NCBI GenBank assembly: GCA_964016885.1
Contig: OZ024742.1
Coordinates: forward strand, 341,496,001 to 341,560,000
Length of the DNA stretch: 64,000 bases
Origin: Eledone cirrhosa
Lineage: Eukaryota
Reading direction: 5' to 3'
The notes under the pieces were generated by a model. It saw only the letters and a program-made list of their open reading frames with translations, was not told the origin of the DNA and made no database searches. A program made the position numbers and the translations under genes. Every line of letters begins with the position of its first letter. The first letter of the stretch is position 1. Below, in pieces: positions 13,994 to 30,670 of the stretch.

Positions 13994-14443
13994 GGGATAA
14001 CAAGTTATCGTTTTAGGTAATGCAGTTAGAGGTTGTGAGTACTCTGTATTATGGATAGTTTTAACGTACGGCGTTGTTTGACTATAAAAGAGAATTCCAT
14101 GCAGGTCATTCTTGGAGTAATAGTAGTGAAAGAGTGAAGAATAACATGGCCGGCCGAACAAGAAGGGTTTTATTTATAGTATTAACAATTTTTTCATTGA
14201 TCAGGTGAGTCGAAAGGCCGCTGATCACTCGAAGTTGCGTCACTCGACCTTAAATACAGTGTGTGTTTCTGATCAAATCATACCAATGATTTGATCAGAA
14301 ACACACACTGTATTTAAGGTCGAGTGACGCAACTTCGGGTGATCAGCGGCCTTTCGACTCACCTGATCAATGAAAAAATTGTTAATACTATAAATAAAAC
14401 CCTTCTTGTTCGGCCGGCCATGTTATTCTTCACTCTTTCACTA
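13994..14443. repeat. Fold-back element D: ~158-bp near-perfect inverted arms plus a left-side tail
   Basis: 14124-14281 is the reverse complement of 14286-14443 with a 4-nt loop (ACCA). About 130 bp of unpaired sequence lies at 13994-14123, and (TA)n flanks both sides. Confidence 0.9.
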
Positions 14444-14603
14444 TATATATATATATATTGAGTATATGTTGGTTGTTTACCGACACCTAAGTATGCAGAT
14501 TGGAGCACTCGACGAAGTGCGTAGGTTGGTTTGGTTACTCCGGAGTAATGTAAGATAAACTAAAATAAATAAGTCAAATATTTAAAATTTGGCTTCGTTT
14601 ATT

Positions 14604-14658
14604 ACTGCTATATATATTTCGGTGACAGCCATCTTTGGCTGTGACCTCTTCAGGCAGT
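14604..14658 (-). ncRNA. Type I hammerhead ribozyme motif (family A), intact
   Basis: Minus strand reads ACTGC-CTGAAGA-GGTCACAGCC AAAGAT GGCTGTCACC-GAAA-TATATAT-A-GCAGT. Confidence 0.85.
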
Positions 14659-15001
14659 CCGAATTAGTGTGGTAGAGACGAGTACACATGTTGTTGAGGT
14701 GTTTAACTTTGTCAATACTTTGATATGCCCAGTTCCTGGTTGGGTTGTTGTTTCATTGAGGAACTGGAATCATATGAATTTAAACAAACGAATTTCAGCG
14801 TCAAAGGACATCCTCTCCTCCCATTGGTCAGTTGTGAGATGCTGAAATTCGTTTGTTTAAATTCATATGATTCCAGTTAAATTCATATGATTCCAGTTCC
14901 TCATAGAAACAACCACCCAATCAGGAACTGGGCATATCAGAGTATTGACAAAGTTAAACACCTCAACAACATGTGTACTCGTCTCTACCTCACTAATTCG
15001 G

Positions 15002-15056
15002 ACTGCCTGAAGAGGTCACAGCCAAAGATCGCTGTCACCGAAATATATATAGCAGT
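15002..15056 (+). ncRNA. Type I hammerhead ribozyme motif (family A), intact
   Basis: Reads ACTGC-CTGAAGA-GGTCACAGC..GCTGTCACC-GAAA-TATATAT-A-GCAGT. Confidence 0.85.
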
Positions 15057-15155
15057 AATAAACGAAGCCCAATTTTGACTTATTTATTTTAATTATTTTA
15101 TATATATATATATATATATATATATATATATATATATATATATATATATATATAT

Positions 15156-15215
15156 AGTAATAATAATAAATTTGAAGACTAAAATCCAAAGAGGGCTCGA
15201 TAAGTATAAATATAT
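15156..15215 (-). mobile_element. Short 3'-terminal fragment of the second Penelope-like family
   Basis: Reverse complement of ~28643-28701 and abuts (TA)n. Confidence 0.75.
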
Positions 15216-15229
15216 GTAAGTGAAATGTA

Positions 15230-28500: not shown

Positions 28501-28701
28501 TTGAAATATTTACTTCTGCGTTCACAGATTGACTTTATTAGTTTCAGAAGATCCCGTTAAGGGTGAAAGCAGCGATTCTTTGCTTAAACTTTAATCTGTT
28601 ATTTTAATAAATATTTGCTCTACAGTTCTTATATATTTTATATATATTTATCCTTATCGAGCCCTCTTTGGGTTTTAGTCTTCAAATTTATTATTATTAC
28701 T
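25555..28701 (+). mobile_element. Apparently full-length Penelope-like element 2, a distinct family
   Basis: Has a short leader, an RT ORF, a frameshifted GIY-YIG and a long TG-rich 3' UTR. The terminus ...TTCAAATTTATTATTATTAC runs into (TA)n. Confidence 0.9.
25596..27712 (+). pseudogene. Penelope-like RT + GIY-YIG polyprotein; RT part open for 493 codons, then frameshifted
   Basis: RT-part motifs are [47 protein letters not shown] and GGGLYRDDG. From ~27280 it reads CNCRNRVDCPLSGKCL..IVYKC..AYIGLTANRFKQRLYMH, and later CDLC. Confidence 0.9.
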
Positions 28702-28959
28702 ATATCTATATATATATATATATATATGTATATGTGTTTATATATATATATATAAATATATATATATATATATATATATATATATATATATATATATATA
28801 TATATATATATATATATATATATATATATATGTATATGTGTATATATGTATATATGTATATATACATATATATATATATATATATATATATATATATATA
28901 TATATATATATATAAGTACATATGTGTGTGTGTGTGTGTGTGTGTGTGTGCGTGTGTAT

Positions 28960-29170
28960 GAATGTAGCGAAGATAATACGTCACCAATGACGTGTTCGTC
29001 AGAATGTCGTAATGCAGACAGTCAGGCATACAGACATATATTATAAGGGCTCGACGGAGATCGATAACCGGCGCCTAACACTCCTTTAACAACAGAAAAT
29101 TGAAAAATAAAAGCTGCAGTTAAAATCTTTAGACCGCAAGGAATATATAAATGCAAGTTTGAAGTCAATC
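28960..29170 (+). repeat. Second, truncated copy of the 18293 dispersed repeat
   Basis: GAATGTAGCGAAGATAATACGTCA...GCAAGTTTG.AGTCAAT matches 18293-18502. Confidence 0.85.
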
Positions 29171-29908
29171 CGAGTAGAAATGTGGATTTGTATAGACTTT
29201 GCAAAAATGAGGACACACACACAGACAACAACAGTTTTATATATATGTATAGATATATATGTGTGTGTGTGTGTATAAATCTGTTATTTTAATAAATATA
29301 TATTATATATGTATATATGTCAGGTCACCAGTTGGTGCTACTGGTAACATGTATCCCAGTACAACCTGTCTCATGGTCGGGTCGTTGGCGACTAAACTGG
29401 CAACCCCACCAACGTTTTTGGTGAGGAGGGTGACTTTGGACATCCTGCAGGACTAAAAACAAAACCTGTCAAAGGGCAAAGGAGCTCTTAAGCGTCAATG
29501 GCAATCCAAAATCACCGGCAGAGATGACCCTTTAGCCTTTGTCAAGGCAGAATTCTATGAGAAGGAAAACTCTGATATAACACCTCCAATGATGTTGACT
29601 TGTTCTTCTTTTTGGTAAATATCATCTTGGTTAAGAGAGTGGGACTGGCTTTGTGCAGTGTCTTTGCTCACTATAAAAGCTTCACAGCACAGGCATTTCT
29701 TTATAGCTGGAGATCTCTCTGCACTTGTCATCACATGGTACCATGGGCCCAGCACTATGTGTCAATAATTGTCATAAGTGTAGTGTTTGTACCAGAGTTT
29801 TCAAGTCGCTGGCTGGACTAAAAAGTCACACTCGTTCAGCGCATCGGTAGGGGTTCTCCTACATGGATATAAAGTAGTGGCCGTACTCGAAAACGAGTTG
29901 GCAGTCAC

Positions 29909-30063
29909 CATATATATATATATATATATATATATATATATATATATATATATGTATGTATGTATGTGTGTGTGTGTGTGTGTGTGTGTGTGTGTGTGTG
30001 TGTGTGTGTGTGTGTGTGTGTGTGTGTGTGTGTGTGTGTGTGTGTGTGTACGTGTGTGTGTGT
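29909..30063. repeat. (TA)n(TG)n microsatellite
   Basis: Read directly. Confidence 0.92.
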
Positions 30064-30480
30064 GGAGAGTCAACGGCCATCCAATAAAGTTTCCCTTTTT
30101 TGTGGAGCGAGAGACGCCTAGTCTTCATTAAGACATCTCTCTAGGTGAATGTTACCCTGATATAAAACCTGCGACTTCATTTGCATCCAATGACGTACAC
30201 CAATTCTACTGTTTGGGTAAATGCATTCGATGTTTAGAGTTGGATTGGCCCCGTACAAAGCCTTTCCTCGCTTCAAAACGCTTCAAGCAAAGGCATCGCT
30301 TGATATAACATTTTTTGCAATGCATGGTATTGCTGGCCATAGCAGGACTAAAAAGCCATGTACGTGATGTTCATGCTTAAGTATCAAGCTATAGCATTAT
30401 TCGAAATCGAGTTGCAGCCATCACGTGTGTATATGTGTGTATATATATATATATATATATATATATGTGTGTGTGTGTAT

Positions 30481-30670
30481 CCCGGGTTCAATCGGGGGTA
30501 ACTACAGTAAGTATGGTACTCAATACATAGCAGAGTATAAATATTTAATATAGAAATGGCTTCTACAGAATTAGAACTGTTTCATTTGAAGGAAATCGTC
30601 AGGAAAGCCCAAATGATTGTCTTGGAATGAAACAGTTCTAGTCCTGTAGAAGCCATTTCTATATTGAATA
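30481..30670. mobile_element. Fold-back element E with a hammerhead motif
   Basis: Arms ~30543-30586 and ~30626-30670 are inverted, with a left tail at 30481-30542 and microsatellite flanks. Confidence 0.75.
30558..30609 (-). ncRNA. Type I hammerhead ribozyme motif (family E) with a conventional stem III and weak stem II
   Basis: Minus strand reads GGCTTTC-CTGACGA-TTTCCTTCAAAT-GAAACAG TTCTAATT CTGT-A-GAAGCC. The cleavage triplet is GTA. Confidence 0.6.

Follow-up and report, generated by a model that had tools for sequence, protein, structure and literature searches.

The window analyzed here is a stretch of 64,000 nt from Eledone cirrhosa (assembly GCA_964016885.1, contig OZ024742.1, positions 341,496,001 to 341,560,000, forward strand), and the structures in question are inverted fold-back repeats of families designated A to F. 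The fold-back arms are the 3′ ends (pseudo-long terminal repeats, pLTRs) of autonomous Penelope-like elements (PLEs), and the families to which they belong are new ones within an already described clade, with an already described arrangement. A family-specific recurrent stop of the arms, observed in four families (A, D, E, and F), is newly added. The palindromes are likely formed anew at each insertion and do not move as units, and it is highly probable that they are per-insertion PLE products.

Parent elements of the fold-back arms

All six inverted structures listed in the first-pass annotation, which had been made by a model from the sequence, were recovered at their positions in the window, with outward-pointing 3′ ends, one-sided tails, and arms that were 91–99% complementary. 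Self-BLAST of these fold-backs gave E-values from 0 to 5e-29, so they are not chance pairings. The outward orientation was read from hammerhead ribozymes in the window and, for family D, from its relatives.

Every family extends upstream or downstream into an open reading frame (ORF) for reverse transcriptase (RT) and GIY-YIG endonuclease, which supported the PLE origin that had been proposed. The E tail and pLTR continue into an intact RT-GIY-YIG ORF in locus L340; RT ORFs were entered from the B tail (L326) and the D tail (L060), with the endonuclease located upstream in L342 (B) and L068 (D), and C continues upstream into a GIY-YIG domain. Direct pLTRs, i.e., copies of the A 3′ end, preceded 18 of the 19 other full-length A 5′ ends, and an inverted piece, beginning at a different position each time, also preceded 12 of these 19. 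The L340 element (G000:C1:14206000-14211300) is an intact single-ORF E element, with its start lying 3 nt upstream of the run-off site (see below) and with a long mixed-dinucleotide region on its 3′ side.

A single ORF with RT followed by a C-terminal GIY-YIG domain was intact in E, broken but collinear in A and F, and assembled from partial copies in B and D. The Pfam GIY-YIG matches were weak (E-values 3e-4 to 0.02, under the cut-off). The Hydra clade is defined by RWK, DKT, CxCx5C, CxxC, and CxH motifs and the lack of CCHH (PMC8557442). The RWK and DKT motifs were found in A, B, D, E, and F (RWR in E and F); the set of CxCx5C linker, CxxC, and CxH with no CCHH was complete in A, E, and F, while B showed the linker and CxxC (L342) and D was represented by the C-terminal CxxC/CxH piece only (L068). 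As judged by eye against reference proteins, A, B, D, E, and F carry the protein motifs of the Hydra clade. By the hammerhead criterion of this clade, A, B, and E were canonical, D had a long stem II, and F was atypical. Family C differs in having a CCHH-type endonuclease and a CX4CxxC linker, and is of the Neptune/Nematis type as predicted from these two features. The ORF in L347 was not accepted as a partner of C, as it was Hydra-type.

The five families known to the first-pass annotation had been described as unrelated. No significant DNA similarity was found among the 3′ ends of the families, but A, B, D, E, and F are not unrelated, since their partner proteins were 33–54% identical, and a sixth family, F, of the same build had been missed. 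A short motif is common to the A tail (14500–14520) and the B tail (17615–17635) of the otherwise dissimilar families, possibly a protein-binding site.

An inverted 5′-truncated copy, a one-sided tail, a hammerhead, and a preference for (TA)n have already been described in earlier reports (PMC8557442, PMC3846280, PMC4209133), and the PMC8557442 supplement lists an octopus Hydra family (Hydra-1_Obim) as well as a Hydra element with an attached inverted 5′-truncated copy (Penelope-13_HM). Since the fold-backs follow this published insertion pattern and run into RT/GIY-YIG ORFs, they do not constitute the separate class of miniature palindromic elements that had been suggested.

Copies in the genome and the palindrome as a unit

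Exact 21–24-mer matches in the genome numbered 2,076 for the D tail, 10,253 for the E tail, 5,665 for the tail of one B subfamily, 2,700 for the A arm, and 10,984 for the C core (both arms being counted for A and C); reversed-pattern controls gave 0 matches. In 144/146 sampled copies, the tail terminated at a (TA)n tract or some other dinucleotide repeat, in agreement with the microsatellite context noted earlier, and these (TA)n flanks mask any target-site duplication. The one-sided tail was also found as claimed, being 44–130 nt long in the window and up to about 160 nt in relatives: 44 nt in C, 55–70 nt in E, 82–85 nt in B, 90 nt in A, and about 160 nt in D. Some copies (L057, L070, L085, and L250) had a tail on both arms. 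When all loci were considered, family F had three preferred 3′ ends (+74, +111, and +162), not two.

An inverted partner was present near the tail in 35/70 E, 11/30 B, 18/30 D, 14/29 A, and 16/29 C copies; these fractions refer to partners near the tail, longer arms being outside the search range. Family D was sampled by pattern, and a whole-palindrome query was dropped as biased because it returned palindromes only. The idea of a fixed-length non-autonomous E element was rejected, as about 20/70 copies read through. A ‘tail-only’ B product was dropped as a main pathway, since it made up 7/29 copies in the first sample vs 0/30 in the unbiased one. In seven B copies (L097–L100, L107, L108, and L110), the tailed arm consisted of the tail alone, and all were joined at one base.

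The outer ends of the copies were fixed at two family-specific sites, the spacing of which equals the tail, and the inner ends and junctions varied between copies. All 11 B short arms ended at +112/114. In 19 E copies the two arms both stopped at the turn site, and among these 15 different junction strings (overlaps or untemplated bases) were counted, and in eight further E copies one arm was at the site and the other, on either side, was shorter. The first-pass annotation had proposed that identical turn points would indicate a mobile palindrome and variable ones formation at insertion. The varied inner ends and junctions favor formation at each insertion, but in several families a turn point was also found to recur without the palindrome being a mobile unit.

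The same subfamily loop was present in both arms of 19/23 E palindromes, i.e., those out of 35 in which the loop was readable in both arms (shuffle mean 4.7, maximum 12). Mean divergence was lower within copies than between copies in all six sets, copies with arms <45 nt or a tail <35 nt, as well as L097, being left out. Shared variants in D showed no same-side excess (18 columns same side vs 31 mixed).

If the miniature palindromes were transcribed, mobile non-autonomous units, or at least seeded second-generation copies, a recurrent turn point as in E and D and thousands of copies would be understandable, as would the window D copy and L023, which have many two-arm variants and few one-sided ones (10 vs 1 and 11 vs 2), like a young copy of an aged miniature. 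However, the junctions differ (15/19), about half of the copies have no inverted arm, and the TATA box is gone from miniatures that start at the run-off site. Shared variants specific to one side are not in excess in D, and for two tested copies no source or sister was found in the assembly, which is better matched by arm-to-arm conversion. Mobility of the palindromes is therefore regarded as very improbable.

Several observations weigh against formation of each palindrome at insertion. The copy's own arm was the nearest one in only 8/27 D, 5/16 C, and 3/16 query-selected E copies; such low counts are expected for old, star-like families but are not a positive result. One C position differs between the arms in the same direction in 5–6 copies, a pattern not expected from a single template. 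One-sided differences are present in most D copies, and about 4–5 of 27, including the window copy, have many two-arm variants and almost no one-arm ones. In both D copies tested (2/2), the shared variant occurred genome-wide only in the two arms of that copy; the insertion event therefore cannot be read cleanly from arm identity. For these homogenized copies, arm-to-arm conversion fits best, and descent as a second-generation copy from a source that the assembly lacks is less favored. Arm identity is accordingly unsuited as a clock, as some copies have been homogenized. In C relatives and in the window (15915–15925), a C-to-G change is found in tailed arms and is rare in short arms, and it perfects a small local hairpin; it is perhaps a templated change.

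Assembly is known to be error-prone at palindromes beside long (TA)n tracts, and assembly or amplification chimeras were considered for this reason. A chimeric origin predicts arms that are identical and randomly located, but the arms differ by 1–9% with indels, the one-sided tails end at fixed sites on many chromosomes, and fold-backs lie inside other insertions and are themselves broken up by further ones, which makes this origin extremely unlikely. The large A junction was spanned by no piece among the contigs of four public runs, which speaks neither for nor against a chimera.

Recurrent arm ends and a candidate mechanism

Of the 75 arms reaching the turn site in 70 E copies, which were sampled in genome order, 53 had their end between −6 and +5 relative to the base at which stem I of the hammerhead begins, and only one of the other 22 ended in the next 24 nt. 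The long arms alone gave 26/46, and of the flanking copies in other loci, 15/25 were at the site. Family D arms ended within 3 nt upstream of stem I in 10/30 cases, and F arms were at the family's site in 14/27. For A, the site is the family's own, ~120 nt upstream of the hammerhead, and 11/30 arms of an unbiased sample ended within 5 nt of it (two of the 11 being one duplicated junction); in another sample, 10/16 arms stopped at this site. With a generous background, the expected pile-up counts were 0.7–3.2. An apparent cluster of A arms at the hammerhead (5/11) was discarded as a divergent subfamily reading through.

The pile-up site is, with moderate probability, the RNA 5′ end. A TATA box was found at −30 in 3/5 E references (−24 and −32 in the other two) and at −31/−33 in 4/6 D references, the TATA spacing and the initiator consensus being those generally known. 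The site might instead be one where RT pauses at RNA structure, such as the ribozyme boundary or local hairpins. The D, E, and F sites are indeed the first base of stem I, but the equally good hammerheads of A and B rarely stop arms (1/32 in A and 3–4/36 in B), which argues against the ribozyme fold as the cause of the pile-up. In addition, the A stop lies 120 nt upstream, a TATA box precedes the D and E sites by 30 nt, and the 5′ strand of stem I would be reached only after its 3′ strand had been unwound. Pausing is thus doubtful as the explanation.

Other findings count against an RNA 5′ end at the pile-up site. Family F has an initiator-like motif and no conserved TATA box, and A has none either, its site holding a self-complementary hexamer that could favor joints. 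Only a soft cluster was seen in B, 70–82 nt upstream of the hammerhead (8/26), no turn-point cluster was found in the arm ends of C, and the coincidence of the D, E, and F sites with the ribozyme boundary is compatible with an RNA-structure pause. Cap-derived extra G residues at the junctions, sought by eye, gave too few unambiguous cases.

The fold-backs are truncated autonomous PLE insertions, in which two cDNAs were probably joined head to head at each insertion. The endonuclease would cut both strands of the (TA)n target, and each 3′ end would prime reverse transcription, at the outer start site to give the tailed arm and at the inner one to give the short arm. The RNA would begin inside the upstream pLTR, so that the two start sites would lie near its 5′ end and also at its 3′ end. 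Priming near the RNA 5′ end would end in run-off after 60–330 nt (a strong-stop-like product), and priming at the 3′ end would read through the promoter into the 3′ untranslated region (UTR) and the ORF. The cDNA ends would then be joined by microhomology or a few untemplated bases and filled in, and in a minority of old copies one arm would later overwrite the other. The published data that bear on these steps are that a purified PLE protein, predicted to be dimeric, cuts and extends both strands, that two internal start sites define the tail, and that uncleaved RNA is used (PMC11167929); the Penelope transcript starts inside the upstream pLTR (PMC2377424).

Two independent cDNAs, rather than one that folds back, are moderately favored. 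A single cDNA that primes itself at its 3′ end and copies itself into the second arm, with later deletions producing the asymmetry, would explain why many junctions are near-perfect hairpins with short overlaps and why the same subfamily variant is in both arms in 19/23. On the other hand, the short arm has 5′ sequence absent from the tailed arm in six E copies and in B (L311, L333, and L335), and the same asymmetry was seen in D (L035, L279, L281, L288, and L300) and eight C copies. Because either arm can hold sequence that is absent from the other, two cDNAs are favored over one self-primed hairpin. Moreover, both arms are complete at several junctions with untemplated bases between them, and the short arm begins at a fixed site, as a second priming event predicts. 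Self-priming is consequently judged unlikely, although the asymmetric arms may partly be the result of later deletions, which speaks against two cDNAs.

Taken one step further, and only tentatively, the inverted pLTR may be integrated strong-stop DNA: the RNA would start in the upstream pLTR (in D, E, and F exactly where the hammerhead begins), a dimeric enzyme would prime on both strands, and the run-off cDNAs would be joined head to head. If this is true, tens of thousands of stubs would preserve, to the base, where PLE transcription once started, and would supply the step still lacking in explanations of tandem and inverted PLE structures. The origin of these structures is named as open in PMC8557442 and PMC11167929. 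The run-off/twin-cDNA idea was not found in the literature searched, the coverage of which did not extend to subscription reviews on PLE structure (2005, 2006).

Retroviral minus-strand strong-stop DNA is likewise a short product of reverse transcription ending in run-off at the RNA 5′ end, but it is transferred, not integrated. In L1 twin priming, two primers from one target cut also lead to an inversion; unlike here, the second priming is at variable sites and there is little duplication.

The canonical PLE insertion unit (PMC8557442, PMC3846280, PMC2377424) has the whole architecture in common with the fold-backs, including partial tandems and a variable inverted part. The published tail is 30–40 bp, whereas tails here are longer, stubs predominate, and turn points are recurrent and family-specific. 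With the Hydra clade (Craig et al. 2021, PMC8557442), the motifs, an ORF of about 710–740 aa, a canonical hammerhead, and (TA)n targets are shared. Few families are given in that report, as compared to at least five here, each with thousands of exact matches and mostly as short stubs; from its first description, the clade would be expected to be much rarer than it is in this genome. The Hydra-type tails here are 55–160 nt, and fixed run-off sites were not found in the accessible part of that description. Poseidon of Anolis, studied in vitro (Frangieh et al. 2024, PMC11167929), shares two internal start sites that equal the tail, cutting and extension of both strands, an AT-rich target, and no need for ribozyme cleavage. 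It belongs to another clade, however, and its start sites are inside the ORF, while here they are upstream of the ATG; no explanation of the inverted copy was found in the part of the Poseidon paper that was available.

Miniature inverted-repeat transposable elements (MITEs) resemble the stubs in being short, with inverted repeats, TA context, and high copy number. The stubs differ in their unequal ends, variable length and center, and RT partner in place of a transposase, and the uniform length, equal terminal inverted repeats, and movement as a unit that define MITEs were not found. Non-LTR retrozymes (10.64898/2026.07.22.740005) are also short, hammerhead-bearing, and derived from PLE pLTRs, but form head-to-tail tandem arrays, whereas the stubs are head-to-head pairs. 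Head-to-tail tandem units with a hammerhead were absent among the sampled stubs, which were single or head-to-head. Stubs can pass as MITEs or microRNA hairpins in annotation, so the earlier warning that they could be mistaken for MITEs is justified. Palindromes are not mentioned in the available part of an octopus repeat annotation (PMC13282606). Since each family offers a pair of fixed outer ends and a single preferred inner end, in thousands of young stubs, single-base predictions can be made of RNA start sites, the two priming sites, and joint types.

Hammerheads and layout of the window

Hammerheads were called by motif scan, and the evidence for them is the motif together with covariation. 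Full type I hammerheads were found in both arms of the small A fold-back (minimal type I, 14604–14658 on the minus strand in the left arm and 15002–15056 on the plus strand in the right arm) and of B (17696–17760, minus, and 18022–18086, plus). The core only was detected in C (15726, plus), E (30602, minus), and the right arm of large A (24754, plus); in the left arm of large A, only the first half of the hammerhead is left. The C hammerhead-like core (15726–15753, plus) has a 6-bp stem II and non-canonical stems I and III. The E hammerhead (30558–30609, minus), the first base of which is the turn point, is canonical in relatives, with compensatory stem I pairs between E subfamilies. In D, the hammerhead has a long stem II insert in relatives and is decayed in the window copy. 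An Rfam search of the window gave no hammerhead at E<=1 and microRNA-hairpin noise only, and the z-scores obtained when the six hammerhead regions were folded as single sequences were weak (−0.2 to −2.0) and were not used as support.

Transcription of A and B had been expected to give a hairpin RNA with one sense ribozyme. The geometry is right, but in the whole-palindrome fold 54/55 (A) and 65/65 (B) ribozyme bases were paired with the other arm, so the ribozyme fold is predicted to be absent, buried in the duplex. A read-through transcript would be a long double-stranded RNA and a putative editing or silencing substrate. The ribozyme appears to be a passenger in stub formation, and the templates appear to be uncleaved RNA.

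The D fold-back (13994–14443) has a tail of 130 nt (13994–14123), 30 nt below the length in relatives, a tailed arm at 14124–14281 (sense minus), and a short arm at 14286–14443 (sense plus), the arms being 99% complementary; its center holds the decayed hammerhead, and the pLTR is Hydra-type. The small A fold-back (14458–15103) consists of a 90-nt tail (14458–14547) and arms at 14548–14783 and 14877–15103 (93%), with an asymmetric 93-nt center that contains an 18-nt duplication. The C fold-back (15426–16010), the 3′ end of a predicted Neptune/Nematis-type PLE, has its short arm at 15426–15657, long arm at 15735–15966 (96–97%), and a 44-nt tail at 15967–16010. It was apparently inserted into (TA)n at the center of another short inverted pair, to which an F tail is joined (15157–15270 and 16100–16155) and which brackets the C insertion. 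The B fold-back extends from 17563 to about 18128–18134, with an 85-nt tail (17563–17647) and arms at 17648–17875 and from 17907 (98%). The E fold-back (30481–30671) has a 60-nt tail (30481–30540), a tailed arm of sense minus, and a short arm to 30671; the arms, from 30541 to 30671, are 91% complementary over 57 nt.

The arms of the large A fold-back are at 19395–20845 and 22646–24098 (98%), plus 18919–19404 and 24371–24849. Its main copy (18826–22584, minus strand) comprises a 5′ UTR, an ATG at 22530, a broken RT-GIY-YIG ORF with Hydra motifs, a 3′ UTR, the pLTR, and the 90-nt tail. The inverted second arm (22585–24853, plus strand) contains the tail end and the first 29 nt of the 5′ UTR, then jumps to mid-ORF and continues through the endonuclease, 3′ UTR, and hammerhead core (24754) without a tail. 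A terminal inverted repeat at the large A 5′ end was rejected, as it is a junction private to that copy. The A run-off site, a putative RNA start ~120 nt upstream of the hammerhead, is at 19117–19127 (minus), and its motif is also found at 14766–14776 (minus), 14864–14894 (plus), and 24631–24641 (plus).

Family F is represented by a mini fold-back with a one-sided tail (17362–17510), absent from the first-pass annotation's list, and by a near full-length Hydra-type PLE (25584–28702, plus strand) with an ATG at 25596, frameshifted RT and GIY-YIG, an atypical hammerhead-like motif from 28540, and its tail end at 28702. A lone F tail piece with (TA)n at its end is located at 16960–17040. A single, tail-less B arm (10043–10700, minus strand) with a hammerhead at 10091–10155 extends into a longer 3′ UTR.

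Two more short repeats in (TA)n context occur twice each (18266–18480 and 28955–29170; 2210–2360 and 25045–25130). An L1/Tx1-like non-LTR retrotransposon with ORF1 and an endonuclease-RT, containing stops and frameshifts, was recognized by eye at 3300–8830. Copies of a repeat resembling short interspersed nuclear elements were located at 2929–3048, 8953–9072, 9885–9966, and 31173–31206, and were also frequent in the fetched loci. The segment 32720–64000, reaching the window end, is a 24-bp satellite of ~1,305 copies with 91% matches and strong G skew.

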